From Candidatus Paceibacter sp. (lineage in GTDB: Bacteria > Patescibacteriota > Patescibacteriia > Magasanikbacterales > UBA922), in the NCBI GenBank assembly GCA_020725175.1, contig DYFM01000002.1, positions 36,880 to 100,879 on the forward strand: a DNA stretch of 64,000 nt, read 5' to 3'. The first letter of the stretch is position 1. Every line of letters starts with the position of its first letter. A program made the translations under genes and the position numbers. Of the stretch, positions 17,474 through 48,736 are shown piece by piece. The notes under the pieces are model-generated. The model made no database searches and was not told the DNA's origin. It saw only the letters and a list, made by a program, of their open reading frames with translations.

Positions 17474-17538
17474 CACGAAGGGTGTGCTATTAACAGCGTG
17501 TTTGTTATTACTAAGAATCATCGTGTTGGTTTGAAGTA

Positions 17539-29658: not shown

Positions 29659-29771
29659 TCGTCAACCAGCGATACGCAGAAATAACAAGTTGTATCACAA
29701 TAAAAAAACGTTTTTCTTTCGAGAAAGGCGTTTTTTATTTTGTTTTGATTTTGTGATATACTTATCACTAC

Positions 29772-29853
29772 AATAGACCGCGAATCAAACGAATAAAACG
29801 GATACAAACGAATCTGTTCGAATTTGTTCCATTCGTTCAATCCGTGGTCTATG
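29772..29853. repeat. TAGACCGCG..GGTCTA-family palindromic element
   Basis: AATAGACCGCGAATCAAACGAAT...ATTCGTTCAATCCGTGGTCTATG. Confidence 0.65.
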
Positions 29854-30562: not shown

Positions 30563-31029
30563 TTATGAGTATTGAACAACAGGAAAAACAATTGACTAAT
30601 CTCAGAGAACGAGAACGATCTCGAGAAATACGCGAAACTAAAGAAGGAGAACCGAATCAAGAGTTAAAAGCCGCAGCCGCCATGGAACGGGCGGATTATT
30701 TGGTAAAAGAAGTCAAACAAAGTAAGCAGCAAATGCAAAATATTATTCTGCATATGCAACAAGTCATGGCAACGATTAAGCAATTGCTTGCCGAGTTACA
30801 GTTGACTGATGATGATCTGCCGCAATCAGTAGCTCAAGACCAGAAGCGAGTTGAGTTGCTACAAAAAAGAATTGCCACGTACCGGGAAGAATTGATTAAG
30901 ATGAAAGAGGATTTGATAAAAGAGTATATTGAAACCTTGAAAGTACAAGAACCAGGTTTGCCGCAAGAAGAATTGGAAGAGAAGGCACGGTTGGCGGTTG
31001 AGGGGATTATATTGGGTGTTGAGAAGTGA
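30538..31029 (+). CDS. hypothetical coiled-coil protein
   Basis: Charged, heptad-rich 163 aa ORF. Confidence 0.35.
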   Translation: MSFRFTKMIMSIEQQEKQLTNLRERERSREIRETKEGEPNQELKAAAAMERADYLVKEVKQSKQQMQNIILHMQQVMATIKQLLAELQLTDDDLPQSVAQDQKRVELLQKRIATYREELIKMKEDLIKEYIETLKVQEPGLPQEELEEKARLAVEGIILGVEK

Positions 31030-31030
31030 A

Positions 31031-31567
31031 ACTAAGATTAAGAATAAGATTAAGATTAAGATTAAGTACGTTTACTGTTTATTGCTAATTGTTTTATGTC
31101 GGAAGTATTGTTACTAGAACAGATGTCTGTGTATAAGTTGCAAACCAATCTTTCAGATGAACTTTGGGAGATCGTTTCAGTGTGGAATTACTTTGCAAAG
31201 GATACAATAGGAAAGCAATTAACGAGGGCTTTTGACTCAATTGGAGCGAACATTGCTGAGGGGTACGGTAGATTTAATTATGGAGAAAAAATAACGGTTT
31301 ATTTCTACGCGCGAGGGTCTGCTTATGAGAGCCAGTACTGGATTAAAAGAGCAAAAGAAAGAAGGCTCCTAGAAAATGAAAAAGCAAATATCTATTTATC
31401 TACCATCCAAAAAATTACTACTGAACTAAATCGTTTAATAAAAACATGTAAGGATAAAAGATAGAATGTTATAATGTATCTTAATCATAAACATCGTTAC
31501 TAAACTATGTATTCGTTCGATTTTCAACCTCAACCTCAACCTTAATCTTAATCTTAATCTTAATCTC
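31031..31567. mobile_element. hairpin cassette: inverted (TAAGAT)n hexamer arrays flanking a four-helix-bundle gene
   Basis: 31031-31067 AAGATTAAGAATAAGATTAAGATTAAGATTAAG and 31526-31567 CAACCTCAACCTCAACCTTAATCTTAATCTTAATCTTAATCT are reverse-complement arrays. Confidence 0.5.
31096..31464 (+). CDS. four-helix-bundle protein (family of 23S rRNA intervening-sequence proteins)
   Basis: 'NYFAKDTIGKQLTRAFDSIGANIAEGYGRF....ARGSAYESQYW' signature of that family. Confidence 0.7.
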   Translation: MSEVLLLEQMSVYKLQTNLSDELWEIVSVWNYFAKDTIGKQLTRAFDSIGANIAEGYGRFNYGEKITVYFYARGSAYESQYWIKRAKERRLLENEKANIYLSTIQKITTELNRLIKTCKDKR

Positions 31568-33357: not shown

Positions 33358-33359
33358 TT

Positions 33360-33974
33360 ATGTTACCGCGATTATCACAATCAGGATTTACTTTAGTAGA
33401 ATTGTTGGTAGCAATTGGGATTACTGTTCTTATCGGAATTATGGCCTCGCAAATGATTATTTCCAGCTTTCGAGATAATGCCATTATTTGGGAACAGCTC
33501 AAAACTCAGTCGGAAGGACGGACGGTACTGAATCGAGTGGTAAACACAGTTCGCCGGGCGGAACAATCAAGTGTAGGAGGATACAATATTGCAGCCGCCA
33601 GTGCAAATGACGTTACATTTTATGCCAATATTGATGAGGATAACTTTCGTGAACAAGTGCGATTTTATCTTTCCGGTACAACGCTGTATCAGTCCACTGT
33701 TAAACCAAGTGGCTCACCGCTGACCTACGTGACCAGTACTGCAACCGTAGTTGCATTGGCAGAAAATATTATGAACAGCTCGTATGGTACGCCGGTATTT
33801 GAATATTATGATGAGTCGTATAGTGGGGTTGAGTCGCCTATGGTAGAGCCAATTGATATTCCGTCGATTAGAATGATTCGAGTTCAAATTGAACTTGAAA
33901 AAGACCCAACAGAAATACCGGTTCCACTGCGAGTGGAGAGTATGGTGCAGGTGCGGAACTTAAAGACGAATTAA
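33360..33974 (+). CDS. prepilin-type pseudopilin (PilV/PilW-like)
   Basis: 'SG|FTLVELLVAIGITVLIGIMAS' prepilin cleavage/methylation motif. Confidence 0.6.
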   Translation: MLPRLSQSGFTLVELLVAIGITVLIGIMASQMIISSFRDNAIIWEQLKTQSEGRTVLNRVVNTVRRAEQSSVGGYNIAAASANDVTFYANIDEDNFREQVRFYLSGTTLYQSTVKPSGSPLTYVTSTATVVALAENIMNSSYGTPVFEYYDESYSGVESPMVEPIDIPSIRMIRVQIELEKDPTEIPVPLRVESMVQVRNLKTN

Positions 33975-33982
33975 TACTAAAA

Positions 33983-34065
33983 AATAGACCGCGGATTGAA
34001 CGGATAAAACGAATACAAACGGATCCGTCCAAATCCGTTCAATGCGTTTCATCTGCGGTCCATTA
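33983..34065. repeat. TAGACCGCGG..family palindromic element
   Basis: AATAGACCGCGGATTGAACGGATAAAACGAATACAAACGGATCCGTCCAAATCCGTTCAATGCG...CTGCGGTCCATT. Confidence 0.65.
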
Positions 34066-34135
34066 TTTATGAAAGCAAAATAATGTTCGAAATAAAAAAT
34101 TTCTTCGGCGGGGAAACTCATTCATTAAACTTCGT

Positions 34136-35536
34136 ATGCTCCGGCAATTATCCTGTTTATTCAAACAACTATCACAAAGTCATCGTGGTTCATCACTGAT
34201 GTTGGTCTTGGTGTTTGGTTCCATTGCGTTTACGGTCATTGTAAGTGGGGTATCAACGTATGCCCTTATGGAATACCGTGCGTCCAACAAGTATTTATAT
34301 CGTGATCAGGCCTTTCATGTAGCGGAAGCGGGGATCAACTATTACCGATGGCACCTGGCGCACAACCCAACAGATTACACTGATGGAACAGGAGAACCTG
34401 GTCCGTATGTTCATGAGTATGTTGATAAAAATGGAACCGTAATCGGAAAATTTTCTCTGGAAATTGATCCGCCTCCCTCCGGAAGCACGGTCGTGACTAT
34501 TCGCTCTACTGGCTGGATGCTGGCTGATCCGGCAAGAACACGTACTATTCAAGCTCGAGTTGGGTTCCCTTCGCTTTCCGATTATGTGTTTCTCAACAAT
34601 AGTAACATGAACTTTAGTTATACGACAGTAGTGCATGGAAAAGTACATTCCAATGGAGGTATTCGCTTTGACGGTACAACAGATTCGTGGGTAACAAGTG
34701 CCAAGGAAACATACAAGTATGAAAATCAAACACATAATGGCGTGTGGGGTGGCGGTGGGCCAAAGTCGTTTTGGAAATACCCTGTTCCACCGGTTGACTT
34801 CAATTCTATCAGTGCCGATCTGGCCGGACTCCAAACGTTGGCACAGGAAAACGGCCATGTGTTGGCATCTTCCGGAAAAGAAGGGTGGCACATCGTTTTT
34901 GCGACTTCGACATATGATCTGCATCGGGTAGAATCAAGAGACTGTTATTATGGAGAAGGAAAATGGAAAAAGTGGAAGTGGTACTGGTATTGGGATGGAA
35001 ATGTGTATTGTGAGGATCTTGGAACAACGACATATATTGAAACCAGAAATCTTCCCACAAATGGGGTCATTTTTTCAAGCGACAACGTATGGGTGGAAGG
35101 AGTTGTTGATGGACGAATTACTGTTGGGGTAGGAGCATTTCCAGTACAAGAACCATATAAGAAGATATATATCAGTGACAACTTGCGATATGCTGAGCAG
35201 TCGAGTGATGACGTAATCGGACTGATAGCACAAGGAGACATCATTGTACCGTATGAAGTGCCTGATACTATGTACATTGATGCGGCTATATTGTCTCAAT
35301 ATGGAGCAATTTACCGACCGTACTATTATGATGATTTGAAAAACTCTTTGACCATTTTCGGGTCGCAAATTTCTTATGAGTCTGGTGGATGGAAGTATGT
35401 GAGTGGTTGGGGACATGTGATTTCCGGATTTGAAGATACAGAACATTTGTATGATGGAAACCTTACCTATAATCCACCGCTTGGTTTTCCGGTTGAAGCG
35501 ACGTACCAGTTGATTTCGTGGGAGGAGATTATGTAA
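34136..35536 (+). CDS. PilX-like minor pilin
   Basis: N-terminal hydrophobic helix then 'DQAFHVAEAGINYYRW', matching the PilX_N 'AF..AEAG' motif. Confidence 0.5.
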   Translation: MLRQLSCLFKQLSQSHRGSSLMLVLVFGSIAFTVIVSGVSTYALMEYRASNKYLYRDQAFHVAEAGINYYRWHLAHNPTDYTDGTGEPGPYVHEYVDKNGTVIGKFSLEIDPPPSGSTVVTIRSTGWMLADPARTRTIQARVGFPSLSDYVFLNNSNMNFSYTTVVHGKVHSNGGIRFDGTTDSWVTSAKETYKYENQTHNGVWGGGGPKSFWKYPVPPVDFNSISADLAGLQTLAQENGHVLASSGKEGWHIVFATSTYDLHRVESRDCYYGEGKWKKWKWYWYWDGNVYCEDLGTTTYIETRNLPTNGVIFSSDNVWVEGVVDGRITVGVGAFPVQEPYKKIYISDNLRYAEQSSDDVIGLIAQGDIIVPYEVPDTMYIDAAILSQYGAIYRPYYYDDLKNSLTIFGSQISYESGGWKYVSGWGHVISGFEDTEHLYDGNLTYNPPLGFPVEATYQLISWEEIM

Positions 35537-35635: not shown

Positions 35636-36508
35636 ATGTCAACTACAACCGTAAAAAAAGGAGTGATTATTGTCGCTGGTTTGGGGACACGCTTTTTACC
35701 AGCTACGAAAGCCATGCCAAAGGAAATGTTGCCCGTACTTGATAAACCGGTTGTACAGTACATTGTCGAAGAAATGGCTGAGAGTGGTATTACTGAAATT
35801 ATATTCGTGACCAGTTCGCAAAAACGTCCGATCGAAGATCATTTTGATCGGGATTATGATTTTGAACGTTTTTTGGAAGAAAATGGCAAGCTTGACAGAC
35901 TAAAACCATTGATTGAGCTTTCCGAAAAAGTACGTTTTTTCTATACGCGGCAAGCTAAGCCACTTGGAAATGGTCACGCACTACTCTGTGCGCGTCAATT
36001 TGTTGGTGACGAACCGTTTGCGTTTTCCGATGGGGATAGTATTATCGATGCCAAAGTTCCAGCTACCAAGCAATTGATTCGAGCATTTAAAAAACAAAAA
36101 TCATCCATTATCGGGGTACAGCGAATTGAAGATAAAGAAGCCATGATGAAGTATGGAAATGTCTATGCTCGCCCGACCGGTAAAGACAAGCGGTTGTTTC
36201 GGGTAGAAAAATTGGTTGAAAAGCCGAGTATCCAAAAAGTCTCTCCACACGGTTTGATTGTTGGTGGAATGCGTTACATTTTTACCAAAGAAATTTGGCC
36301 GCTTCTTGAAAAGCAAGGACAAGGCAAGGACAATGAAATCTGGGTAGCGGATGCGGCCAATGAACTGGCCAGAAAAAAGCCGTTTTTTGCGTATGAATAC
36401 GATGGTTTATATTTTGATACCGGAAACAAAATCGCTCTCTTGAAAGCCGCGCTTCATTTTGCGATGAAGGATGAGGGGGTGCGGGGGGAGTTGAGAGGAG
36501 TAATATGA
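35636..36508 (+). CDS. galU: UTP--glucose-1-phosphate uridylyltransferase
   Basis: 'KGVIIVAGLGTRFLPATKAMPKEMLPVLDKP' N-terminus and 290 aa length. Confidence 0.85.
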   Translation: MSTTTVKKGVIIVAGLGTRFLPATKAMPKEMLPVLDKPVVQYIVEEMAESGITEIIFVTSSQKRPIEDHFDRDYDFERFLEENGKLDRLKPLIELSEKVRFFYTRQAKPLGNGHALLCARQFVGDEPFAFSDGDSIIDAKVPATKQLIRAFKKQKSSIIGVQRIEDKEAMMKYGNVYARPTGKDKRLFRVEKLVEKPSIQKVSPHGLIVGGMRYIFTKEIWPLLEKQGQGKDNEIWVADAANELARKKPFFAYEYDGLYFDTGNKIALLKAALHFAMKDEGVRGELRGVI

Positions 36509-37620
36509 CATCTTTTTTAAAAATTAAAATAATAATAATAGTATTGCTTAGTATATTTTTTCTTTCTAGTGATACTGTTTTTACTATTCAAACATGTTGT
36601 GTTTACGATGATGGTAATGACATGGTGGGAGGGTATGTTGGTCAATCACCTTGTCAACAGGTGGGTGGTTTCTCTGTGGTGGAAACAGACGACTCTGATA
36701 TATGTAACGAGGCATTAAGTTATAATGGAAAGAACAAGAGTTTTATGCTTGAGTGGGCAAATACACTTGTAGATTATGTTAAAGAAAAAAAAATATATGA
36801 ACAAGCGGTAACTAGTATTGCGAACAATCACTGCTGTGTTCCTAAATATGCTTATAAAGATCAGTTGGGTTGTGCCCCCCCCAAAAAATTTGAGGATAAG
36901 CCAAAAAAAGATTTTTTTACCATGCTATGGACTGTCGCACAAAAAGAACCAACCGATCCAAATAATATCACAGTCACAGACAAAACACTGTTGAGTGATT
37001 TAAACATTTTCACTAATAAATCATATATAGATAACTCTGATCTTGTTTCATGTGATTCAGGTAGTTACGCGCTTTTTCCTATTAGCTGTGGAAGTAATTC
37101 ATATATTGATAAAAAAGCCATTGATCATCCGGCCGGAGAAGGACCTCTTCAAGTTCCTCTTCAGCAATATTGTCAAGCAATAAAAGAATTTTACTGTTCG
37201 TGTGCGGATGATTTTAGTGAATGTTCAAATACAAAGTTTACTAATATTGACATATGCCTAAAAAATCAAGTTGGAGGAGTCAATAAGAAATGTGTACCTG
37301 TAGACCAACAAACAACTTGTGAAAGTTTGGTTATCATAAAGTATGAGGGGGTTAAGTTTTCTTTACCTGATACAAAAAAATTAGATCATATAGGTATTAG
37401 TATTCAGGAGTTTATTGGTCGTGTTGTATATACTGCTATGGGTGTTGTAGGAAGTATTGCGCTGGTCATGATGATATATGGTGGGGCACTATGGATGACC
37501 GCTGCTGGTAATTCTGAGAAAGACGCAAGAGCATTGAAGATAATGTTTTGGGCGGGGCTAGGGGTAGTTATAATATTGAGTAGTTATGCAGTTGTTACAT
37601 TTGTTTTTAATGCATTGTAA
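36505..37620 (+). CDS. secreted Cys-rich protein with C-terminal TrbC/VirB2-like pilin domain (array member 1)
   Basis: Signal peptide, about 300 aa ectodomain with about 20 Cys, then 'IALVMMIYGGALWMTAAGNSEKDARALKIMFWAGLGVVIILSSYAV'. Confidence 0.65.
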   Translation: MTSFLKIKIIIIVLLSIFFLSSDTVFTIQTCCVYDDGNDMVGGYVGQSPCQQVGGFSVVETDDSDICNEALSYNGKNKSFMLEWANTLVDYVKEKKIYEQAVTSIANNHCCVPKYAYKDQLGCAPPKKFEDKPKKDFFTMLWTVAQKEPTDPNNITVTDKTLLSDLNIFTNKSYIDNSDLVSCDSGSYALFPISCGSNSYIDKKAIDHPAGEGPLQVPLQQYCQAIKEFYCSCADDFSECSNTKFTNIDICLKNQVGGVNKKCVPVDQQTTCESLVIIKYEGVKFSLPDTKKLDHIGISIQEFIGRVVYTAMGVVGSIALVMMIYGGALWMTAAGNSEKDARALKIMFWAGLGVVIILSSYAVVTFVFNAL

Positions 37621-37622
37621 GT

Positions 37623-38777
37623 ATGTCAGTAAGAAGACCAGGAGTAGATTTTGATGGTGAGTACATCGCAGCCACTTCTACAGGGCAATTTGCTCATAAT
37701 ATAGGCGAAAAAATTAAAAGAAAACTTGGAAAAGTAGCGGATTATGTGAGACCATCCGTTGATAGAATTCGCTCAGGTGGTTCTGATTTTTGGAAAAAAA
37801 CAGCAAGTGACGAATATAATCGTACTCCGGATAAGTGGACTGGTCAGCAATTATTTGAAATTTTTGAGAAAATATACCAAGAGATACCAAATGATGTTGG
37901 TCCAGAAAAAAAAACTGAGGAAGCTATTCTGGATTTTTATTCTTTTTTACTCCGTCAAGGTATAGACGAATTACCAAAAGATTTTGATAGGTATTTTGGT
38001 GATGGTATTGGAGAACATATAGACATGGAGTACCTTGACGAAGTGGATCCATATACAATTAAAAGAGGAGAAACAACAGAAGGCTATTTAAGAAGATTGT
38101 TTAGTTTCTGGCATTTAGAAGATGTCAATAATCTTCGTGTTGCATTCAACGGAAGCAAATTTTCTAATGATTCTCCTGCTAAAATTTTAGAAAGAGAAAT
38201 ACTTAAATCAGTTAAGGAGGAGGACTCAGAGCGTGTTTCACGCTTACTTCAGCTTGCTAGACCTACAGATCAAAAACATTATTTGGAACTAATTCATGAC
38301 CATGAGATAGCGCATCTTGCAAATGAGTATAGTGAATCGATTAAAGCTGGAAGTTCTGAGTATGATATTCCGGCAAGAAGAATGCTTGCAGCCTCAGCAA
38401 AAGGAAAAAAGATCTTGGAGAGTTTGGATAGGCAAAGGACATTAAAACTTTATGAAGAAATGAGAAAAAAACAGGAAGAGGATACGCTTGAATATATTAT
38501 AACCAGATTTATTCCTGCTTTAAATACAACTAAAAATATGGATGCTTTGCGTATGGCGTGGAATTTGTCTACATTCAAAGATGACACAAATAACATTGTG
38601 GATTCTGATGAAATGTTAAGGCGTGTGTTAGTTATGTATGCTGAGGATGGAGAGGTGGAAATTGTTTTGAGATTACTGTTAATTTCACAAGAAAGCGAAC
38701 TTAATAATAATACAACAATGGTTAAGAGAATATTAATGGAAAAACATCCGGAATTATATAATCAGATAGAGACATAA
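37623..38777 (+). CDS. hypothetical soluble protein
   Basis: 384 aa, no TM; 'HDHEIAHL' is a possible HExxH. Confidence 0.35.
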   Translation: MSVRRPGVDFDGEYIAATSTGQFAHNIGEKIKRKLGKVADYVRPSVDRIRSGGSDFWKKTASDEYNRTPDKWTGQQLFEIFEKIYQEIPNDVGPEKKTEEAILDFYSFLLRQGIDELPKDFDRYFGDGIGEHIDMEYLDEVDPYTIKRGETTEGYLRRLFSFWHLEDVNNLRVAFNGSKFSNDSPAKILEREILKSVKEEDSERVSRLLQLARPTDQKHYLELIHDHEIAHLANEYSESIKAGSSEYDIPARRMLAASAKGKKILESLDRQRTLKLYEEMRKKQEEDTLEYIITRFIPALNTTKNMDALRMAWNLSTFKDDTNNIVDSDEMLRRVLVMYAEDGEVEIVLRLLLISQESELNNNTTMVKRILMEKHPELYNQIET

Positions 38778-38787
38778 ATAATGACGT

Positions 38788-40161
38788 ATGTATAAAAACA
38801 TCATCGTACTAACCATCCTTTTTACTTCTGTTTTTCTCTTTGGTTTCGGTTGCAAAGGTCTTTCCAAAGAGCAACAGCAACTCATCAAACCAGTCACGCT
38901 CAATTACTGGACGGTATTTAATGATGTCAAAGAATTGCAGCGTATGGCCGATGAGTACAAACTTCGTCGTCCTTACGTTACTGTAAAGGTCCGACAAGTT
39001 CGCTATGAAGAATTTGATCAACTCTTTACCAATGCGCTCGCTGACGATGTGGGGCCGGATATTGTGTCTATGAATGTTCGTTGGATTGGCGAGCATGAGC
39101 AGCGCCTCATGCCAATGCCGGCGTCAGTCACTGTTGCCAATGTGCAAACCAAGGGAACCTATATCCAAGAAACACTCGTTACACCGGAAACAGTTGCCAT
39201 GCCAACACTTCGGGCCATTCAGGAAAAGTTTGTGAGTACAGTGGCGGAAGATATTGTTATTGGAAAAAACATGTATGGCCTACCATTGGCGCTTGATACC
39301 ATGGCTCTTTATTACAACAAAGATCTCCTCGATCAGGCCGGAGTGCCGGAAGCACCAAAAACCTGGAGCGACTTTCTTGATGCGGTAAAAAAGTCAACCA
39401 AGTTTGATGCCAGTGGAAACATTGTGCAGTCTGGAGTGGCAATGGGGACCGGGAATAATATCGATAATGCCGGTGATCTAGTCGCTTTACTTATGATGCA
39501 AAATGGACGAGATATGACCGAAGGAAAGAGTGTGATTTTTGCTTCCGGTATTGGAAACGCTGCTACAAACCATCCGGCTATGCAGGCGGCGAGTTTTTAT
39601 ACCAGTTTTGCTCGCCCTACATTAGAGTCTTATTCGTGGAATGAAACGCAGGAAAATGCTTTGACATCCTTTACGAGAGGAAAAAGTGTTTTCTACTTTG
39701 GATTTGCTTATGATTTACCACGTATCCAAGCTCAGGCTCCACAGATGAACCTGGAAATTGTTTCTGTCCCGCAGCTTCGTTCTGATGCGCCCAAAAATGT
39801 TGCCAACTACTGGATTGAATCAGTAGTCAAGAAATCGAAGAATCCAAATGAAGCATGGGATTTTATTCGCTTCATGGTAAGTTCACAAAATATTGCCGCG
39901 TATACCAAGGCAACAAATCGTCCTACACCACTGCGAGAACAAATTGCGGCTCAACGAGAAGATGTCCGATTAGCACCGTTTGTTGATAGTGTATTAGTAG
40001 CAAAAAATTGGTACCGTGGAAAAGATTATGAACCGGCAAACCAAGCAATTCGCTCTATGGTAGATAATCTGTTAAAACCAGTGCCGGAAAATCAGGATGA
40101 AGCAAGGGCACACGCCACCATAATCAATAACGCCGCACGAGTAGTGCAGCAGACGATGTAG
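38788..40161 (+). CDS. ABC-transporter substrate-binding lipoprotein (family 1 solute-binding protein), orphan
   Basis: Lipobox 'GFGCKG' and SBP_bac_1-like length and motifs; no permease or ATPase gene nearby. Confidence 0.55.
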   Translation: MYKNIIVLTILFTSVFLFGFGCKGLSKEQQQLIKPVTLNYWTVFNDVKELQRMADEYKLRRPYVTVKVRQVRYEEFDQLFTNALADDVGPDIVSMNVRWIGEHEQRLMPMPASVTVANVQTKGTYIQETLVTPETVAMPTLRAIQEKFVSTVAEDIVIGKNMYGLPLALDTMALYYNKDLLDQAGVPEAPKTWSDFLDAVKKSTKFDASGNIVQSGVAMGTGNNIDNAGDLVALLMMQNGRDMTEGKSVIFASGIGNAATNHPAMQAASFYTSFARPTLESYSWNETQENALTSFTRGKSVFYFGFAYDLPRIQAQAPQMNLEIVSVPQLRSDAPKNVANYWIESVVKKSKNPNEAWDFIRFMVSSQNIAAYTKATNRPTPLREQIAAQREDVRLAPFVDSVLVAKNWYRGKDYEPANQAIRSMVDNLLKPVPENQDEARAHATIINNAARVVQQTM

Positions 40162-40163
40162 GT

Positions 40164-41372
40164 ATGAAAAAATTTTTTTTCTTAATATTGTTTACTGTTT
40201 TTTCTTTTCTACCATTATATGTGGCAGATGTTCTGGCTGCAAAGTGTTCGTGTAACCTTCAGTTTTCTTCAAAAAGTTCGGATCCTAATATAGTACCTTG
40301 TACGTTGAATAAAACGAAAGAATTTCCATTGTGCTCATCAGTTAATTTGAGCGGTTTGGCGAACGACCTTGATACGTGTGAGGTTGGGAAAGTCATTTTT
40401 GGTGCCGAAGCTGAAATACTACCCTCTACAATTCAGGTAAACGATTCAGGTTGTGCGGCAATGAGTAAGTCAGGAGGTGATAAGATAAACATTCCGATAT
40501 ATGGAGAAATAAACTATACTTATGATTTTAAGTGTCAGGTGATTGGTCAGCCTGTTGATAATGAAAAAGTTTGTCCAGTCAAAGCACCATCAAATGTAAA
40601 CTGTCCTAAACTCACAGAATCCCTTAACTGCGACAAACCAGAAAATCTCCAAAAATGTCAAGACACTTGTAACAACCAAAGTGAAAATCAGTGCATCTGG
40701 AACACTGCCAATAATTCATGTGTAAAAAAAGTCTTAGGCGCTGGTGGTGTGAGTCAACAAGACGCTGCAAAAATGTATCAAGATAAATTTTATGGGAAAC
40801 CAGAAGGTTATAACGGCTTCCTCCCTGATTGTGCCTTCACTGGTGACTGCGATGATGTGAACGATTTACTACAACTCGCCATAGGAATTGGTGAATGGAT
40901 ATTCAAAATTTCCGGTTCAGTCGCTTTCCTGATGTTTGTCTATGGTGGATTTATGATGGTGCTTTCTACCGGGAACTCTGAGCGAGTGAAAAAGGGGAGA
41001 GATATACTGGCGGCCGCGGTAGTTGGTTTGATTATAATATTCGGTGCCTATATGATTGTGGGATTTGTTTTGAATACTCTTGGGGTAACGGAATTTTATG
41101 ACTTTCGAGCTGCGCCAACTGAAGGTGGGGGGAGTTCTGTCTCTGAAACAACAAAATCTACTCAAAACAAAGAAGAGGCTAATAAAGATGAAGAACAACA
41201 AGCAGGATTTTGCGTAACCATAAAGGGTGGTGCGGCAGCTTGCATCCCAATAAATGGAGCTAACTGTGGCGATTATATTGGAGAAGATTCTAAACCTGGT
41301 GGTAGTATTATAACGGAAAAACCAACATGTGATGCGTTGGCTAACGAATTAAACACTCCCGCTTCACCATGA
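40164..41372 (+). CDS. TrbC/VirB2-like pilin-domain protein with N-terminal Cys-rich domain and C-terminal extension (member 2)
   Basis: 'SVAFLMFVYGGFMMVLSTGNSERVKKGRDILAAAVVGLIIIFGAYMIV'. Confidence 0.65.
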   Translation: MKKFFFLILFTVFSFLPLYVADVLAAKCSCNLQFSSKSSDPNIVPCTLNKTKEFPLCSSVNLSGLANDLDTCEVGKVIFGAEAEILPSTIQVNDSGCAAMSKSGGDKINIPIYGEINYTYDFKCQVIGQPVDNEKVCPVKAPSNVNCPKLTESLNCDKPENLQKCQDTCNNQSENQCIWNTANNSCVKKVLGAGGVSQQDAAKMYQDKFYGKPEGYNGFLPDCAFTGDCDDVNDLLQLAIGIGEWIFKISGSVAFLMFVYGGFMMVLSTGNSERVKKGRDILAAAVVGLIIIFGAYMIVGFVLNTLGVTEFYDFRAAPTEGGGSSVSETTKSTQNKEEANKDEEQQAGFCVTIKGGAAACIPINGANCGDYIGEDSKPGGSIITEKPTCDALANELNTPASP

Positions 41373-41971
41373 GAGTAACTATAAATATGATTAAATCTAA
41401 AGTCAAAGGTTTTTTCTTAATCAACATTTTTACACTGGGATGGTTGTTTTTCCCAACTGGCTTAGTATTATCATCTAACGGTGAGAAGTGCTTTTGTCTT
41501 GATATTAGTACTGATAAATTTGAAGAGGTTACTACAATTGCTTCTCAAGAAAATTGTACAGATGTTGAGGCGGAAAAAGTAAAGCCTACATATAGTCTTT
41601 GTACGTGGGAGTTACCAGAAAAACCAGTTCCTGAAAAAACGACAAGTGAAGTGTCAGCTGATAAAAGCAAAAATTCAACTAATGGAGGTGGTGAATGTGG
41701 CATCGACAAAGTCTGCCTCACCAACCCTCTCAAAGACGGCACAGACATCCCGACCCTTATTGGAAATATTATCAAGCGTGTGTTAGGAATTCTCGGTTCA
41801 ATCACCTTAGCAGTATTTGTTTACGGAGGATTCCTCTGGCTCACGAGTGCGGGTAATGCAGAAAAAGTCAAGAAAGGAACCGAAACAATGGCCTGGGCAG
41901 CAATTGGGGTCTTTATCATTTTTAGCGCGTATGCTATACTAAGTACGATTATAAAAGGGATTACTGGATGA
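41369..41971 (+). CDS. TrbC/VirB2-like pilin-domain protein (member 3)
   Basis: 'ITLAVFVYGGFLWLTSAGNAEKVKKGTETMAWAAIGVFIIFSAYAIL'; ATGA start/stop overlap with member 2. Confidence 0.65.
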   Translation: MRVTINMIKSKVKGFFLINIFTLGWLFFPTGLVLSSNGEKCFCLDISTDKFEEVTTIASQENCTDVEAEKVKPTYSLCTWELPEKPVPEKTTSEVSADKSKNSTNGGGECGIDKVCLTNPLKDGTDIPTLIGNIIKRVLGILGSITLAVFVYGGFLWLTSAGNAEKVKKGTETMAWAAIGVFIIFSAYAILSTIIKGITG

Positions 41972-41980
41972 TAATTGGAT

Positions 41981-42723
41981 GTGCGAACTTACGAACAGTA
42001 AGTACGAACATACGAACTACGAACAATTGAATCCGCCCACGGCCCCAGGCGTGCACAGCAAGGCGGACGAGGGTTTTATTCTCTCCCGATTTGATCGAGA
42101 AAAACTACCTATAGCGATACCCTGTCAGCTTCCACCCCGGGCGGACACGTGCTGCGGGGACATTCGTTTGTAAACTGCGAAGAGTTAGGTCTAATAAGTT
42201 TAAAAATATGCGCGGAGGGCAGACAATTGTACGAAATGATAAAATTTTGTATCCGGAACTAAGTTATCAAATAAATGGAGTTTTAATGGATGTGGCGAAG
42301 ACGCTTGGTGGCGGTCATAAGGAAAATTATTACGGAAATGCTTGTGCTGTAGGATTTACGAAAAGACAGATATCATTTCAAAGAGAAGTGTATGTGCCAC
42401 TCACATATGAAGATGAAAAAGTAGGAAAATATTTTGTGGATTTTCTCATCGAAAATAAAATAATCCTGGAGCTAAAACGTGGTCAATTTATATCAAGTTC
42501 AGTAATAGAACAGACAAAACAGTACTTGGTTGCAAAAAATCTAAAATTGGGAATAATTGGCTGTTTTACTTACAATGGGGTAGTTATCAAAAGAGTAGTA
42601 AACGAGTATTAAATATGTACGAACAATACGAATGATAAGTACGAACATACGAACTGCGAACAAAGCAACTTTTCTCGCCAGTTCGTAGTTCGTATGTTCG
42701 TACTTACAGTTCGTACGTTCGGA
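41981..42723. mobile_element. hairpin cassette: inverted (TACGAAC)n arrays flanking a GxxExxY gene
   Basis: 41981-42028 GTGCGAACTTACGAACAGTAAGTACGAACATACGAACTACGAAC versus 42617-42723 GTACGAACAATACGAA..GTACGAACATACGAACTGCGAAC...GTTCGTAGTTCGTATGTTCGTACTTACAGTTCGTACGTTCG. Confidence 0.5.
42208..42612 (+). CDS. GxxExxY family protein (PD-(D/E)xK-like; family known from 23S rRNA intervening sequences)
   Basis: 'TLGGGHKENYYGNACAVGFTK.....KYFVDFLIENKIILELKRGQ.....QYLVAKNLKLGIIGCF' fits the GxxExxY pattern. Confidence 0.55.
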   Translation: MRGGQTIVRNDKILYPELSYQINGVLMDVAKTLGGGHKENYYGNACAVGFTKRQISFQREVYVPLTYEDEKVGKYFVDFLIENKIILELKRGQFISSSVIEQTKQYLVAKNLKLGIIGCFTYNGVVIKRVVNEY

Positions 42724-42788
42724 CATTAACAAATAACCAGAACCACAAATATGAGTAATGATCTTCCATCGAAAGGAGGTGAGAGAAC

Positions 42789-43223
42789 ATGAGTAAAATG
42801 TATATGTTGGCGGCAAAGTACAAAGCTTTTTTTGCGGTGTTTTTTGCGCTCGGAATGGCATTTGTCCTTTCACCGGTAGCTTTTGCACAAACAAATGAGT
42901 ATTTGTCTACCGAATGTGGAGCTAATGATCCTTTTTGTATCGAGGGTGCAAGAGTAGAAAAGCTTGGCGATGAACCATTATTAGATACTATTACTAGTAT
43001 TATCAACGTTGCGTTGAGTCTATTGGGTATCGTTGCGGTGGTAATTATCTTGATTGGTGGTTTCAAATGGATGACAGCTGGTGGTAGTGAAGATAAGGTG
43101 GCCGATGCGAGAAAGTTAATTTTCTCTGGTATTATCGGTATTGCTATCATTTTGTCGGCGTGGGCAATTGCAAATTTTGTTTTGAGTGCCTTGGTAGATG
43201 CTACAGGTGCAGGTGTAGAATAA
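42789..43223 (+). CDS. TrbC/VirB2-like pilin-domain protein (member 4)
   Basis: 'IVAVVIILIGGFKWMTAGGSEDKVADARKLIFSGIIGIAIILSAWAIANFV'. Confidence 0.7.
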   Translation: MSKMYMLAAKYKAFFAVFFALGMAFVLSPVAFAQTNEYLSTECGANDPFCIEGARVEKLGDEPLLDTITSIINVALSLLGIVAVVIILIGGFKWMTAGGSEDKVADARKLIFSGIIGIAIILSAWAIANFVLSALVDATGAGVE

Positions 43224-43296
43224 CAGATGGAAAACAAAACCGGTTTTATTTTACCATCCGGATTCATGCGGAGCACTCGTTGCTCCGCAGTTGTAA

Positions 43297-43740
43297 GTGG
43301 TTCATTCCTATGAAACATTTACAACTGTTTCTAACCTCTTTTATATGAAAAAACGCCTCCTGTCATTTGTTTTCAGCCTTCTGATCATGTTTGGGGTACT
43401 GTCAATATCTACTTCTGTATCAGCCCTGGCACCAAATCAACCGGACACACTTGGACTTTCCTATGGCGCAGAAACGGGGTTGAGCGGACAAGATGTTCGT
43501 ATTACTGTAGCTAGAATCATTAGTGTGGCATTAGGATTGCTTGGTATTTTGACTGTCTTACTTATTTTGTACGCCGGATTTATGTGGATGACTGCGGCCG
43601 GGGAAGAGGATAAGATAAAAAAAGCCAAAGGCATACTTACAGCCGCCATTGTCGGGTTGGCAATTATTTTAAGTGCTTACGCTATTACCAGATTTGTCAT
43701 TGAAAGTTTGATGGATGCTACTGGGGTGTATCCGTATTAG
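43297..43740 (+). CDS. TrbC/VirB2-like pilin-domain protein (member 5)
   Basis: 'ILTVLLILYAGFMWMTAAGEEDKIKKAKGILTAAIVGLAIILSAYAITRFV'. Confidence 0.7.
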   Translation: MVHSYETFTTVSNLFYMKKRLLSFVFSLLIMFGVLSISTSVSALAPNQPDTLGLSYGAETGLSGQDVRITVARIISVALGLLGILTVLLILYAGFMWMTAAGEEDKIKKAKGILTAAIVGLAIILSAYAITRFVIESLMDATGVYPY

Positions 43741-43753
43741 CTATTGTTGTTGT

Positions 43754-43836
43754 AAGCAGAGTAGGCAGAGTAAGCAGAGTAGGCTTTTGCATTATTGAGC
43801 TTAATATGCGTAATCTGCTTACTCTGCCTACTCTGC
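43754..43836. repeat. palindromic GCAGAGTA-repeat element
   Basis: GCAGAGTAGGCAGAGTAAGCAGAGTAGGC ... GCTTACTCTGCCTACTCTGC. Confidence 0.6.
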
Positions 43837-43877
43837 AAAAAAACTCAGTAAATCACATTATATACTAACTTTCTTTT

Positions 43878-44633
43878 ATGAAACAGTGGAAGTTTCTCAT
43901 ATTCGGCATGGCATTCTCACTCATGTTTGTAATTGGTTCAGGAATTGTGCTTGCTGATAAGTATGGACTTGATGCCACCGCAAAAGCTGCTGATCTGAAT
44001 ACTACAGATAATTTACCTACTATTGTTGGTAATATCATCGGTACCGCCCTCTCCATTGTTTCTGTGGTATTTTTTATTCTCATGATTTTTGCCGGATTTT
44101 TGTGGATGACGGCACATGGTAAAGAGGATCAAGAGAAAAAAGCCCGGGACACTATTTTTGCGGCCATTATTGGTATTATCATCATCTTGGCTGCGTACGC
44201 GATTACGAATTTGGTATTTAGTTCGGTGAAGGCGGGTTCGGGGGGTGGTGGAGGTGGTGGGAGTGCTACTCCAACACAGACAGCTTCAGGTAATCAAACA
44301 AAAAAAACAGATGATGCCTGTTTAGATTTAAATGGTGAGTGTCAGTTTAACGCAACAAAAGGTGGAAATTGTACAATAGGCTCAATCTCTGGAAAATACC
44401 AAGAGGATAAATGTTTAAGTAACTCTTCAAAAACATATTTATGTTGCGTACCTACAAAACCGATTGGATATTGTATTAAAAATGATAAAATCTGCGTAGC
44501 TAATGATAGCGATGGAGAGAATTGCACAGACGATATGAGAGGGGTAAATGGAGAATACGGTGGAATAAAATTTGCTACTGAAAAAGAGTGTGATGTGTAT
44601 TATGAGACTTACTTGGAACAACAACTTAATTAA
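43878..44633 (+). CDS. TrbC/VirB2-like pilin-domain protein with C-terminal Gly-rich linker and Cys-rich domain (member 6)
   Basis: 'VVFFILMIFAGFLWMTAHGKEDQEKKARDTIFAAIIGIIIILAAYAITNLV' then 'GSGGGGGGGS' and a 10-Cys tail. Confidence 0.7.
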   Translation: MKQWKFLIFGMAFSLMFVIGSGIVLADKYGLDATAKAADLNTTDNLPTIVGNIIGTALSIVSVVFFILMIFAGFLWMTAHGKEDQEKKARDTIFAAIIGIIIILAAYAITNLVFSSVKAGSGGGGGGGSATPTQTASGNQTKKTDDACLDLNGECQFNATKGGNCTIGSISGKYQEDKCLSNSSKTYLCCVPTKPIGYCIKNDKICVANDSDGENCTDDMRGVNGEYGGIKFATEKECDVYYETYLEQQLN

Positions 44634-44665
44634 AAGAATCTTCATGTTGAAAGAGTACTGGGGTT

Positions 44666-45343
44666 ATGTTAGGAATAAATATTATGAAAATAATTGTAAA
44701 AATTTTCATTTCAGTGTGTTTATTTTCAATAGGTTTGGTAATATTAACGCCAACTACTTTTGCCAAACAAACAATCTCCCAAGCCCAAAGCAATCTCGAT
44801 ACCGTCGTTGATCAAACCGGGATCGTTTCTGAGGACACAAAGAATGTACCGGCAGTTGTAGGAACAATTGTGAGTATGGCGCTCAGTGTGGTCGCGGTGG
44901 TATTCTTTGCTCTCATGGTCTATGCCGGAATCAAGTGGCTGGTATCGCGTGGTGATGAGGAGCAGATCAAAAAAGCGCGGAGTACGATTATAGGTGCAAC
45001 GATTGGATTGGTTGTGATCATTAGTGCGTATGCATTTACGCAGTTTGTGCAGGAGCGGATCATAGAAGGACAAGGTCAAGGACAACCAATCGCAAGTCAG
45101 AACCAAATAGAAATTGGTTCAGATGCCGGTGGTGGTGTGGTGGGATGTTGTGTGGACACTGTAGGAGCGGCCGGTACTCTATGGAGTATTCCAAAATCAG
45201 CATGTCGTATTACTACATCCAAAGACTGTGAAACACGGGGCTTAACATGTGAAACAGGAGATAATTTTTGTACCAATGAAGATTGGGAGTTTGATGAATC
45301 TATCACAGATATTGCTTCGTGTATAGACAAGTATTGTGACTAA
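44666..45343 (+). CDS. TrbC/VirB2-like pilin-domain protein with C-terminal Cys-rich domain (member 7)
   Basis: 'VAVVFFALMVYAGIKWLVSRGDEEQIKKARSTIIGATIGLVVIISAYAF' then a Cys-rich tail. Confidence 0.7.
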   Translation: MLGINIMKIIVKIFISVCLFSIGLVILTPTTFAKQTISQAQSNLDTVVDQTGIVSEDTKNVPAVVGTIVSMALSVVAVVFFALMVYAGIKWLVSRGDEEQIKKARSTIIGATIGLVVIISAYAFTQFVQERIIEGQGQGQPIASQNQIEIGSDAGGGVVGCCVDTVGAAGTLWSIPKSACRITTSKDCETRGLTCETGDNFCTNEDWEFDESITDIASCIDKYCD

Positions 45344-45355
45344 CAACTTACTTTT

Positions 45356-45733
45356 ATGAAAAAAAATTTTTTACTAAGTATAGTTTTCTTACTTCTTTTA
45401 CCAGCTGTGGTATTTGCCCAAGGAGATTTTTCAAATGCAAGAGGTAACCTAGAAGATGTCGGTGCAAAAGTGGGAGGTACAATGCAAACTGATCTCGGTG
45501 CGGCTATCGGTACAGCTATCAGCGCGGTCTTGGGTTTGGTAGGTCTTATTTTCTTTGTCCTGATGGTCTATGCCGGATATCTCTGGATGACGGCGCGAGG
45601 AGAAAGTGAGCCAGTTGATAAGGCAAAGAAAATCATTACCGCTTCAATCATTGGACTCGTCATTGTGGCGAGTGCGTATGCGATTACGGTACTGCTTACC
45701 GGTACCTTTGATCAAAGCATTGGCGGGCAGTAG
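45356..45733 (+). CDS. TrbC/VirB2-like pilin-domain protein (member 8)
   Basis: 'LIFFVLMVYAGYLWMTARGESEPVDKAKKIITASIIGLVIVASAYAITVLL'. Confidence 0.7.
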   Translation: MKKNFLLSIVFLLLLPAVVFAQGDFSNARGNLEDVGAKVGGTMQTDLGAAIGTAISAVLGLVGLIFFVLMVYAGYLWMTARGESEPVDKAKKIITASIIGLVIVASAYAITVLLTGTFDQSIGGQ

Positions 45734-45760
45734 TCATGTTTCGTAAAGTGTTAGAAACGA

Positions 45761-45843
45761 AATAGACAGTGGATAAAACGAATCAAACGAATAAAAACGG
45801 ATCCGTTATCATCTGTTCCATCCGTCCAATCCGCGGTCCATTT
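45761..45843. repeat. TAGAC...CCGCGGTCCAT-family palindromic element
   Basis: AATAGACAGTGGATAAAACGAATCAAACGAATAAAAACGGATCCGTT...CCGTCCAATCCGCGGTCCATTT. Confidence 0.6.
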
Positions 45844-45899
45844 ACTCCTCAATAGCACAAATACAAAGAAATCAGTTCGTATTTATCCTAAAATATCGT

Positions 45900-46289
45900 A
45901 TGAAATTTCGAATCGGTTTTCAAAAAACACTCATAGTTGTTTTTCTCTCACTACTATTTATCAGTCCGGTATCAGCGGTTGAGCTTGGTGGGGGTCTGTT
46001 GAAAAATGCTCAGGAGGCATCTGGATACGAAGTAGCAACCCGCCTAACATTTGCCGAACGCCTGGGTCAAGTCGTACAAGTTGCCTTATCATTTGTTGGA
46101 ATTATTTTTCTCGCCCTTACTGTCTATGCCGGCTTTCTCTGGATGACGGCGCGTGGTGAATCGGATAAAATTGATAAAGCCAAAGAGATCTTAAAAGCGT
46201 CTATTATTGGTTTGGTTATTACTCTTGGTGCGTATAGTATCGCGGCCTTTATTGTTCCGGCCATTATGGCGGTCCAAGGAACTCCATAA
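45900..46289 (+). CDS. TrbC/VirB2-like pilin-domain protein (member 9)
   Basis: 'IIFLALTVYAGFLWMTARGESDKIDKAKEILKASIIGLVITLGAYSIAAFIV'. Confidence 0.7.
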   Translation: MKFRIGFQKTLIVVFLSLLFISPVSAVELGGGLLKNAQEASGYEVATRLTFAERLGQVVQVALSFVGIIFLALTVYAGFLWMTARGESDKIDKAKEILKASIIGLVITLGAYSIAAFIVPAIMAVQGTP

Positions 46290-46296
46290 GCAAACT

Positions 46297-46701
46297 ATGA
46301 AGTTTATTATTGCCATTTTATTTGTTCTAGCACTTCTTCTCCTTGGAATACCTGACAATGTTGTCCTAGCACAAGATGCTCCTTCATACATGGAGCAACT
46401 TCAGGCAGGGGGGACCGGAGCCGGGATAGAAAATACGGAGACACCGATAGATCCGAGGTCGTTTATAGCCTACATTATTCAAATCGCTTTAAGTTTTGTG
46501 GGTATTATTTTTACCGGACTGACGGTGTATGGCGGATATCTCAGAGTGACAGCACATGGAGAAAATGAACGAATTGAAAAATCCACCAAAGTGATTACCG
46601 CGGCTGTTATTGGTCTGGCTATCACACTTCTCGCGCTGGGAATTACTGTAGCGGTAAGTACAATCGTTGGGACCGCTGCCAATCCGGCCTTTACCTATTA
46701 A
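46297..46701 (+). CDS. TrbC/VirB2-like pilin-domain protein (member 10); start at internal Met 'MKFIIAIL'
   Basis: 'IIFTGLTVYGGYLRVTAHGENERIEKSTKVITAAVIGLAITLLALGITV'. Confidence 0.65.
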   Translation: MKFIIAILFVLALLLLGIPDNVVLAQDAPSYMEQLQAGGTGAGIENTETPIDPRSFIAYIIQIALSFVGIIFTGLTVYGGYLRVTAHGENERIEKSTKVITAAVIGLAITLLALGITVAVSTIVGTAANPAFTY

Positions 46702-46702
46702 T

Positions 46703-47296
46703 ATGTTTTCATTGCGACACGCATTTGCGACAACTTGTTTTCTCATTTCACTGCTTGTACTCCCTGTTGGCTCAGTTTTAGCTACTTCGCCACTTCCAGA
46801 CTTAGGTGATGGACCGAGCCAAACTACTCAGCAAGAACAAGCACAAGCGGAAAAAACCGCCACACAAGCCGAACAAGAGCAGTTTCAGGCCTTTGTTGGA
46901 AACAAGGGAGCGAATCTTGGTGGGTATGTAGATGATCCAAGAAGGGTGGCTGCGCGTGTAATTAGTTATGCGTTGGGACTGCTCGGTATGCTATTTTTGT
47001 CGTACACCATTTATGGTGGAGTGGTCTGGATGACCAGTGCCGGAGAAGAGGAGAAAATCAAAAAAGGGAAAAGTATTATTGTAAATGGAGTCATTGGGGT
47101 GGCAATTATCTTGAGTGCGTATGCCATTACCGGCACAGTCGCAAGAATTCTTCAGGGTCAGCAGGAAGTGCCGGAAGGGCAACCCTGTGTTATGCCGGAT
47201 TCAAGTGATTTTACCAACAAAGATCCGCTCCATGAAGATGTGAATAGTTGGTGGTATCCGGAAGGACTTCCTCCGTGTAACGTATTGCCGGAATAA
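46703..47296 (+). CDS. TrbC/VirB2-like pilin-domain protein with C-terminal extension (member 11); start at 'MFSLRHAF'
   Basis: 'MLFLSYTIYGGVVWMTSAGEEEKIKKGKSIIVNGVIGVAIILSAYAITGTV'. Confidence 0.65.
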   Translation: MFSLRHAFATTCFLISLLVLPVGSVLATSPLPDLGDGPSQTTQQEQAQAEKTATQAEQEQFQAFVGNKGANLGGYVDDPRRVAARVISYALGLLGMLFLSYTIYGGVVWMTSAGEEEKIKKGKSIIVNGVIGVAIILSAYAITGTVARILQGQQEVPEGQPCVMPDSSDFTNKDPLHEDVNSWWYPEGLPPCNVLPE

Positions 47297-47302
47297 TAAC
47301 AC

Positions 47303-47334
47303 AAACACCGTACGAGTTACGGTGTTTTTTTTAG
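47303..47334. terminator. bidirectional rho-independent terminator
   Basis: ACACCGTA-cgagt-TACGGTGT followed by T8. Confidence 0.6.
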
Positions 47335-48643: not shown

Positions 48644-48736
48644 AAACGAAATAGCGAAATATCGAAATAAGGAAATAGATCAAGTGTGGTGGAGCTATTT
48701 CAATATTTCGATATTTCGCTATTTCTTTATTTCGGT
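48644..48736. repeat. palindromic ACGAAATA/ATTTCG oligo-repeat element
   Basis: AACGAAATAGCGAAATATCGAAATAAGGAAATAG ... CTATTTCAATATTTCGATATTTCGCTATTTC. Confidence 0.6.

Follow-up and report, generated by a model that had tools for sequence, protein, structure and literature searches.

The classical pilins of type IV secretion systems (T4SS) consist of two helices with a short basic loop between them; both their termini are extracytoplasmic. Integrative and conjugative elements (ICEs) of Mycoplasma carry a single pilin-like copy on the mobile element. In a search of 3,035 Patescibacteria genomes with the families PF04956 and PF18895, 441 arrays of 2-11 pilin genes were catalogued, with a mean identity of 25% and a maximum of 54% (Quinonero-Coronel et al. 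2025, PMC12102498). VirB4 was encoded in 2,417 of the 3,035 assemblies (80%), and VirB2-like pilins were present in 1,948 VirB4-containing assemblies, in 1,135 of these near virB4, thus unlinked arrays are common (PMC12102498). In Southlakia epibionticum ML1, six PF18895 genes (SEML1_0014-0019) in a T4SS cluster were each essential in transposon sequencing (Tn-seq), and Foldseek comparisons of these pilins with TrbC/VirB2 or DUF4134 models gave TM-scores of about 0.75 (Wang et al. 2023, PMC10633639). Reviews describe the T4SS and the pilin array as essential in this organism, the only genetically tractable Patescibacterium, name the function of the patescibacterial T4SS "completely unknown" and speculate on nutrient import. 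Here we report on an array of eleven pilin-like genes within a 64,000-nt stretch of contig DYFM01000002.1 of Candidatus Paceibacter sp., in the following called the window. Exact protein matches place the window also on contig DYGQ01000002.1 of GCA_020724605.1, a metagenome-assembled genome of the Magasanikbacteria. The genes are an old, ordered set of paralogs that can very probably be assigned to the PF18895 "T4SS pilin" (VirB2-like) family. We favour, with considerable room for doubt, the explanation that they encode non-redundant subunits of a T4SS-associated surface structure in Candidatus Magasanikbacteria.

A first reading of the letters alone, the original prediction, had proposed eleven + strand paralogs with a common core, and all eleven open reading frames (ORFs) were recovered within 36505-47296 at the positions it had listed. 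A hidden Markov model (HMM) was built from eleven 80-residue segments cut around the YGGFxWMTA motif and run against the stop-to-stop ORFs of a six-frame translation of the whole window. Exactly eleven ORFs matched, with E values of 5e-35 to 1e-29, whereas the best ORF outside the array reached E = 1.8. All cores aligned without a gap over 80 residues, with the consensus VYGGFLWMTAxGxxEKxKKAxxIIxAAxIGLxIILSAYAIT, which agrees with the motif described before; the conserved length is about 70-80 aa rather than the 55 aa first estimated. Pairwise identity of the cores was 24-52% in the protein (median 34%) and 42-58% in the codon-aligned DNA. Neither the repeat finder nor the core comparisons detected long near-identical DNA repeats or gene-conversion-like identical tracts within the array; the repeat finder returned solely stretches of 55-129 nt at 60-75% identity, spanning the motif. 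Such a low DNA identity without long near-identical repeats excludes an assembly duplication. Two independent assemblies of other sequencing runs contain the array with 100% identity, base for base, and no sequence variation was found among three independent samples. The eleven copies are real, old paralogs, divergent as the original prediction had held. An artefact, be it assembly duplication or chance similarity of hydrophobic ORFs, has no point in its favour and is refuted by the DNA identity, the identical independent assemblies, the gap in HMM E values and the orthologs in dozens of genomes.

The proposed membrane topology was recovered in every member of the array: the hydropathy scan revealed a signal-like hydrophobic N-terminal segment and two transmembrane (TM) helices in all eleven proteins. 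A plausible small-x-small cleavage site is present in each copy, e.g. VFA/QG, VSA/VE or VLA/QD, and the loop connecting the helices has 12-16 residues with 3-4 Lys/Arg throughout. Invariant Gly residues and the W-M-T-A motif mark the hairpin. For pilin 8 (the copies are numbered in their order along the array), a plain protein of 125 aa, AlphaFold2 predicted a confident helical hairpin with a mean predicted local distance difference test (pLDDT) score of 81 and helices at residues 47-78 and 84-123; in the models of pilins 8 and 6 the hairpin itself reached a pLDDT of about 90 or above.

Ten of the eleven copies passed the Pfam gathering cut-off for PF18895 (T4SS_pilin) of 26.6 bits, with 28.7-43.3 bits, and only pilin 10 at 46297 stayed below it (E 4.7e-4). 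This copy is the most divergent one and lacks the W and SAYAI motifs; it matches the core HMM with E 1e-29, and its orthologs occupy the same position of related arrays. The best NCBIfam match of all ten copies scanned (46297 was left out) was NF045849, the pilin-like conjugal transfer protein of the Mycoplasma ICE (Mbov_0395 / MMCAP2_0565), with E values of 4e-9 to 0.05; the next NCBIfam families followed at about 0.001 or worse. Its equivalog cut-off of 40 bits was reached by none of these ten copies (13.2-36.1 bits). Some homologs carry the NCBI name "pilin". The N_methyl motif of type IV pilus pilins (PF07963) was not detected at E <= 1 in ten copies, nor at E <= 0.01 in the eleventh. The core profile matched 80,431 clusters (50% identity) of a library of 1.84 billion proteins at E <= 0.001.

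For comparison, 80 loci with 10-kb flanks were gathered, one genome per species of the Genome Taxonomy Database (GTDB), with the gene 38788-40161 as anchor. This gene lies upstream of pilin 2 and codes for a solute-binding protein. Its homologs and those of the pilins are named Candidatus Magasanikbacteria (Patescibacteria / Parcubacteria group), as are many of the 443 homologs of pilin 8. Downstream DNA of 3 kb or more was available in 55 patescibacterial loci; each of them had two or more PF18895-type genes 3' of the binding protein on the same strand, separated from it by a median of 60 nt, and 51 had three or more. Among the 12 non-patescibacterial loci with a binding-protein homolog, none had pilin genes. 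The original prediction had described the array as interrupted by a hypothetical protein, an orphan binding protein and a GxxExxY cassette. All three are present as described, but the binding protein is the conserved leader of such arrays and no interruption. Where 8 kb or more followed downstream, the arrays comprised 2 to 13 genes; nine of the 42 loci had eleven copies, one had 12 and two had 13. The related Magasanikbacteria loci had 9-13 copies, eleven being typical of the clade, so that the scale of the array, first judged unusual, is at the upper end of the published range and within that of the related loci. In most related loci the galU-like gene is located immediately upstream of the binding protein, and in about 20 Magasanikbacteria loci the whole order of minor pilins, galU-like gene, pilin, binding protein and array is kept.

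Four distant loci (L066-L069) present a different arrangement: behind a binding-protein homolog come a pilin and then a two-hairpin pilin. In L067, whose remaining genes were scanned, PrgI (VirB3-like) is next, then a TrsD-like protein and then a VirB4-like ATPase (NF045971, 374 bits, cut-off 325); L066, L068 and L069 have a homolog of this ATPase in the corresponding position. In some lineages the binding-protein and pilin module therefore belongs to the T4SS locus itself, whereas in the Magasanikbacteria the two are apart. The second-best family of the L067 ATPase is the Mycoplasma ICE VirB4 NF045975 (294 bits), which mirrors the best match of the pilins. Pilin and ATPase thus appear to point to the same monoderm conjugation lineage of the mating pair formation type MPF-FATA.

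When the cores of the window were paired as reciprocal best matches with those of 22 arrays of nine or more genes, they proved collinear, with a Spearman rho of 1.0 in 15 of the 22 arrays and a mean of 0.96. Orthologous cores shared 44-59% identity, while paralogs averaged 27-39%. The paralogs are older than the species splits and each has been kept; the array is an ancient orthologous subunit set of constant order across species, without recent or free expansion. Collinear orthologs and the individual essentiality in Southlakia therefore favour non-redundant roles over interchangeable variants. At about 50% protein identity the orthologs are too diverged for a meaningful ratio of nonsynonymous to synonymous substitutions (dN/dS). 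Recent pilin duplicates with a core identity of 76-99% were observed in the related arrays L018, L021, L022, L024 and L028; new pilin copies are occasionally born in related arrays. Furthermore, a single polypeptide can contain 2-17 PF18895 hairpins in tandem after one signal peptide, such as 8 hairpins on 820 aa in P0220 and 17 on 1,775 aa in P0223; two-hairpin ORFs were present in L064-L069 and L071.

Cys-containing extensions, the longest of about 270 aa, are present on seven of the eleven copies. The Cys counts of the mature pilins 1 to 11 are 16, 20, 6, 2, 0, 10, 8, 0, 0, 0 and 2, hence all even. The N- and C-terminal fusions listed in the original prediction were present, but its layout was incomplete: the gene 40164 has Cys residues also in a C-terminal tail, and 41369 and 42789 carry Cys-containing N-terminal segments. 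Extensions are common in the related loci as well. There, 445 pilin-domain ORFs included 122 with an N-terminal extension of at least 100 aa, 99 with a C-terminal one of at least 40 aa, 17 with extensions at both ends and 241 with neither, that is, about 46% were extended. These extensions had 5.3 and 8.3 Cys per 100 residues compared to 0.83 in the other long ORFs of the same loci, and the Cys number was even in 169 and odd in 52. The Cys contents suggest that the extensions are disulfide-bonded.

An all-against-all BLASTP within the array yielded no significant similarity among the extensions. The shuffling of one common Cys-rich module, as first assumed, is not supported, the extensions being different sequences. 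Only the terminus that bears the extension varies among positional orthologs: that of pilin 3 is N-terminal in the window, C-terminal in L003 and L005 and present at both ends in L053. With both termini presumably outside, an ectodomain at the N- or the C-terminus would be topologically equivalent, which is the simplest explanation of the three architectures and needs no shuffling. The positional orthologs of pilin 1, upstream of the binding-protein gene, are likewise extended at the N-terminus. Weak similarities connected the N-terminal extension of pilin 2 to the first gene behind the binding protein in 7 related loci, and the C-terminal extension of pilin 7 to its positional orthologs in L053, L003, L004 and L006. 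In general, the outer domains diverge fast. Among positional orthologs the cores were 41-76% identical, the extensions 13-30% with few marginal phmmer hits. The diversifying family of the original prediction has to be restricted accordingly: the outer domains diversify, while the cores are stable and have collinear orthologs across the 22 arrays. The extension of pilin 6 was modelled by AlphaFold2, from 63 homologs, with a pLDDT below 50 throughout. Pfam domains were rare among 146 extended pilins: Dickkopf_N in two, SLT in three, SH3_3 in one and DUF4215 in one; one homolog is named by NCBI "Dickkopf N-terminal cysteine-rich domain-containing protein". In the three SLT cases, all from related loci, a lytic transglycosylase domain (VirB1-type activity) is fused to the VirB2-like hairpin.

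We propose the following explanation. As judged from the sequence, each product would be exported by the Sec pathway and its signal peptide cleaved, and the mature protein would form a membrane hairpin with both termini outside and the Lys/Arg loop inside. A Cys-rich, disulfide-bonded ectodomain could be fused to the N- or the C-terminus to equal effect. Literature and synteny suggest that a VirB4-type (MPF-FATA-like) T4SS encoded elsewhere in the genome recruits the subunits and builds from them a hetero-oligomeric surface structure resembling a pilus or a stalk. The four plain, Cys-free copies (43345, 45356, 45900 and 46297) would be the likely structural core, while the extended copies may be minor or distal subunits that present rapidly evolving domains for host contact. 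The binding protein, conserved along with the array, probably cooperates with the structure, e.g., by binding host-derived glycans.

Several observations weigh against this explanation. VirB4, VirB6, VirD4, PrgI, TrsD and relaxase genes were detected neither in the window, from which the original prediction had correctly reported the absence of VirB4, VirB6, VirD4 and relaxase, nor in the 10 kb beyond each end (84 kb in total). The direct sequence link of the array to classical TrbC/VirB2 appears weak, and the proposed pilin identity of the core holds for PF18895 and much less for TrbC/VirB2. The PF04956 (TrbC/VirB2) cut-off of 27.9 bits was not reached, the best score being 21.6 bits, and any hit was obtained for 3 of the 11 copies. 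Among the sub-threshold hits of 124 homologs, Cyt_bd_oxida_II matched 99 members and TrbC 18; as an unrelated family outnumbers TrbC, such hits carry little weight. An hhalign comparison of the 124 homologs with four annotated plasmid VirB2/TrbC proteins gave E 0.02 at a probability of 2.3%, with helix 1, loop and helix 2 all aligned in register. The profile of the 124 homologs retrieved no pilin from the PDB sequences, only spurious repeat matches to designer "Pizza" proteins. A VirB2-type helical pilus would hardly have room for ectodomains of 100-490 aa on all of its subunits, and the natural poly-pilins fit a fixed membrane oligomer better than a one-by-one polymerisation. Reviews consider a filament of these pilins merely possible, none having been observed in any Patescibacterium, and Tn-seq essentiality within an operon can reflect polar effects. 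Fold searches with the pilin 8 model returned thousands of unrelated generic helical hairpins. Homology to the pilus-forming VirB2 is therefore based on the family curation, the published structure comparisons for Southlakia and the gene context.

A display of surface proteins independent of any T4SS would explain the same genes differently. The hairpin would be a mere anchor of single adhesins or receptors with Cys-rich domains, perhaps acting with the binding protein and the type IV pilus. We regard this as unlikely, although the 84 kb free of T4SS genes, the large ectodomains, the generic hairpin fold and the synteny with galU and binding protein in about 55 species, and with type IV pilus minor pilins in about 20, instead of with virB4, all agree with it. 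Four of the 11 copies and 241 of the 445 related ones have no ectodomain and thus nothing to display, and the conservation of the hairpin, with its invariant Gly, W-M-T-A and 44-59% identity between species, exceeds the needs of an anchor while the ectodomains drift. Moreover, this module of binding protein and pilins stands next to a VirB4-like gene in L066-L069, with PrgI and the TrsD-like gene between them in L067, and the Southlakia array is situated within a T4SS cluster. Even less credit is given to a repertoire of interchangeable major pilins for antigenic or host-range variation, as proposed for VirB2 of Bartonella and Anaplasma. Variation of this kind has been suggested for the Patescibacteria (PMC12102498), the ectodomains of positional orthologs are far less alike than their cores, and a few related arrays contain recent duplicates with core identities of up to 99%. 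Birth-and-death evolution or gene conversion would, however, erase the old distinct lineages that are present in the same order in 22 arrays, and the array lacks gene-conversion-like identical tracts and is invariant among the three independent samples. In Southlakia all six paralogs are individually essential.

A fixed hetero-oligomeric ring or channel of hairpins, active with the binding protein in the uptake of host compounds, with or without VirB4 and not as an extended pilus, appears to us similarly improbable. The invariantly adjacent binding-protein gene with no classical ABC permease or ATPase nearby, the collinear, non-redundant subunit sets, the natural polyproteins of 2-17 hairpins behind one signal peptide and the nutrient import by the patescibacterial T4SS speculated on in reviews speak for it. 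This support is purely associative, the binding protein could be a simple surface glycan binder, and an array size of 2-13 between lineages argues against a strict stoichiometric ring. We know of no precedent for a binding protein that feeds a VirB2-type assembly. A wider proposal, for the Magasanikbacteria and several further patescibacterial lineages, unites PF18895 hairpins, binding protein and galU in one host-interface organelle: a fixed hetero-oligomer of 9-13 non-redundant hairpin subunits, concatenated in some lineages, with hypervariable disulfide-rich termini and a binding protein that captures host glycans or metabolites for VirB4-driven import or signalling. We put it forward as a speculation with small prospects; if true, the array would encode a binding-protein-coupled, pilin-based uptake device instead of a conjugative pilus.

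The features of the array and its surroundings are compiled in Table 1. The start of pilin 5, first placed at GTG 43297, was moved to ATG 43345 because the gene was called from there in the identical contig L001; this start is probably the correct one.

Table 1. Coordinates of the pilin array and adjacent features in the window
Feature	Position	Strand	Characteristics
Type IV pilus minor-pilin cluster	31570..35536	+	595-aa and 204-aa N_methyl pseudopilins (PF07963), 466-aa protein with N-terminal TM helix
galU-like UTP-glucose-1-phosphate uridylyltransferase	35636..36508	+	PF00483; TIGR01099 galU 277.8 bits (cut-off 326.8)
Pilin 1	36505..37620	+	PF18895 36.4 bits; predicted signal peptide, ~270-aa N-terminal ectodomain (16 Cys), C-terminal core
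Protein without family match	37623..38777	+	384 aa; no signal peptide, no TM helix; cytoplasmic-looking
Carbohydrate-type extracellular solute-binding protein	38788..40161	+	SBP_bac_1 / SBP_bac_8, E 1.8e-25 and 4.9e-25
Pilin 2	40164..41372	+	PF18895 35.4 bits; ~200-aa N-terminal ectodomain (15 Cys), core, 95-aa C-terminal tail (4 Cys)
Pilin 3	41369..41971	+	PF18895 43.3 bits; ~85-aa N-terminal extension (6 Cys), core
Inserted cassette	41979..42726		GxxExxY / PD-(D/E)XK gene at 42208-42612 (+); PF13366, TIGR04256
Pilin 4	42789..43223	+	PF18895 43.2 bits; short N-terminal segment with 2 Cys, core
Pilin 5	43345..43740	+	PF18895 30.4 bits; plain, Cys-free
Intergenic hairpin	43756..43836		Inverted-repeat search; 29-nt arms, 93% complementary, of GCAGAGTA repeats
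Pilin 6	43878..44633	+	PF18895 33.8 bits; core, Gly-rich linker, 133-aa C-terminal extension (10 Cys)
Pilin 7	44666..45343	+	PF18895 33.2 bits; core, 92-aa C-terminal extension (8 Cys)
Pilin 8	45356..45733	+	PF18895 35.8 bits; plain, 125 aa, Cys-free
Palindromic intergenic element, 83 nt	45760..45843		Repeat search; between pilins 8 and 9
Pilin 9	45900..46289	+	PF18895 28.7 bits; plain, Cys-free
Pilin 10	46297..46701	+	PF18895 20.6 bits; plain, Cys-free
Pilin 11	46703..47296	+	PF18895 37.1 bits; Gln/Glu-rich N-terminal segment, core, 46-aa C-terminal tail (2 Cys)
Bidirectional terminator-like hairpin	47303..47327		Between pilin 11 and a convergent gene resembling monogalactosyldiacylglycerol (MGDG) synthase

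The genes are arranged in an operon-like order of galU-like gene, pilin, lineage-specific gene, binding protein and ten pilins. Touching or overlapping start and stop codons occur from galU as far as pilin 3 (36505/36508, 37620/37623, 40161/40164 and 41369/41372), the galU-like stop codon overlapping the start of pilin 1 in an ATGA; co-transcription from galU to the hairpin at 47303-47327 is therefore likely. A promoter scan was uninformative, with 32 sites found and 31 expected. The N-terminus of the binding protein is lipoprotein-like (...LFGFGC), and its NCBIfam hits to carbohydrate-binding proteins of this type were weak. No genes for an ABC permease or ATPase were present by the binding-protein gene among the scanned ORFs of the window and its flanks, nor in L067. 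The 384-aa gene is wedged between pilin 1 and the binding protein with gaps of 2 nt and 10 nt; it had no match in Pfam or NCBIfam and no tblastn homolog in the 80 related loci. By this comparison it is a lineage-specific insertion into the operon. The GxxExxY cassette, bracketed by 46-nt inverted repeats (93% complementary) of TACGAAC heptamers, had no counterpart at this position in any related locus and is likewise regarded as an insertion specific to this lineage.

Further repeat structures were observed in the window. A second long, near-perfect intergenic hairpin at 48645-48728 has arms of CGAAATA tandem repeats. The 83-nt palindrome exists in three copies that are 76-78% alike (29771-29853, 33982-34064 and 45760-45843); it could be an element of the type of repetitive extragenic palindromes (REP) or miniature inverted-repeat transposable elements (MITE), or a site of transcript processing. 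Shortly before the minor-pilin genes of the type IV pilus, inverted arms built of AAGATT repeats (31028-31567) enclose a 23S_rRNA_IVP gene (bAvd-like four-helix protein, 31096-31464). No template/variable repeat pair was found in the window and no reverse transcriptase among its scanned ORFs; the bAvd-like cassette is probably not a diversity-generating retroelement. The two hairpins and the two cassettes suggest a genome-wide habit of forming stem-loops from tandem heptamers. The minor-pilin cluster, with N_methyl genes at 31570-33974, is situated directly upstream of the region of galU and array. Other type IV pilus genes at 11364-18117 code for PilB, an unassigned 409-aa protein, PilC, PilM and PilN, and together with the minor-pilin cluster they make up a full gene set for this pilus. 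The remaining scanned ORFs of the window were housekeeping genes, and the longest ORF of the window had 595 aa. Past the right end of the window, at a distance of 0.6-3 kb, a HicB/HicA toxin-antitoxin pair and a Y1 (IS200-like) transposase were located (L085 10627-11116 and 14651-15196).

With respect to the biology of these bacteria, three aspects of the array are of interest. Ancient collinear and probably non-redundant paralogs argue against the antigenic variation proposed in PMC12102498. About half of the pilins have fast-evolving, probably disulfide-bonded outer domains, which are candidate determinants of host recognition. The genetic linkage of the pilins to a sugar-type binding protein, also where VirB4 follows, offers a possible connection between the T4SS and the capture of nutrients or glycans.

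Compared to the described systems, the array coincides best with those of the Patescibacteria. It shares with the Southlakia cluster and the arrays of PMC12102498 the PF18895 domain, the signal peptide with a two-helix hairpin and the low identity within the array, and it fits the array definition of PMC12102498, having eleven genes and two interruptions that consist each of one or two non-pilin genes. The Southlakia array lies inside the T4SS cluster, whereas the array here is at least 10 kb, and probably much further, away from any VirB4 gene. The Southlakia pilins have 104-185 aa, in contrast to the large Cys-containing extensions of seven copies here, and a leader of galU-like gene and binding protein is neither listed for the Southlakia cluster nor mentioned in PMC12102498 or PMC10633639. 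VirB2 of Agrobacterium, TrbC of RP4 and TraA of F are similarly small, Sec-exported proteins with a long signal peptide and two hydrophobic helices. The array differs from them by the missing significant sequence match, by many divergent paralogs in place of one major pilin, by the monoderm organisms and by the large ectodomain fusions. The likeness to the Mycoplasma ICE protein NF045849 consists in the top NCBIfam match and in the strong match of the VirB4-like ATPase beside a related array to NF045975; unlike the ICE protein, the array genes score under the equivalog cut-off, are chromosomal and multi-copy and have no conjugation genes nearby. Tandem multiplication of pilin genes with variation is also found in the VirB2 clusters of Bartonella and Anaplasma phagocytophilum (PMC12102498). 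Those paralogs are thought to be interchangeable surface variants, whereas the ancient collinear orthologs here argue for distinct roles. The array is thus a further example of a published genome feature of the Candidate Phyla Radiation (CPR) and nothing new in kind. Three of its traits, found neither in PMC12102498, PMC10633639 and their supplements nor by a full-text literature search, appear to be undescribed so far: the ectodomain-bearing subunits, the invariant leader of binding protein and galU, and the strict collinear orthology.

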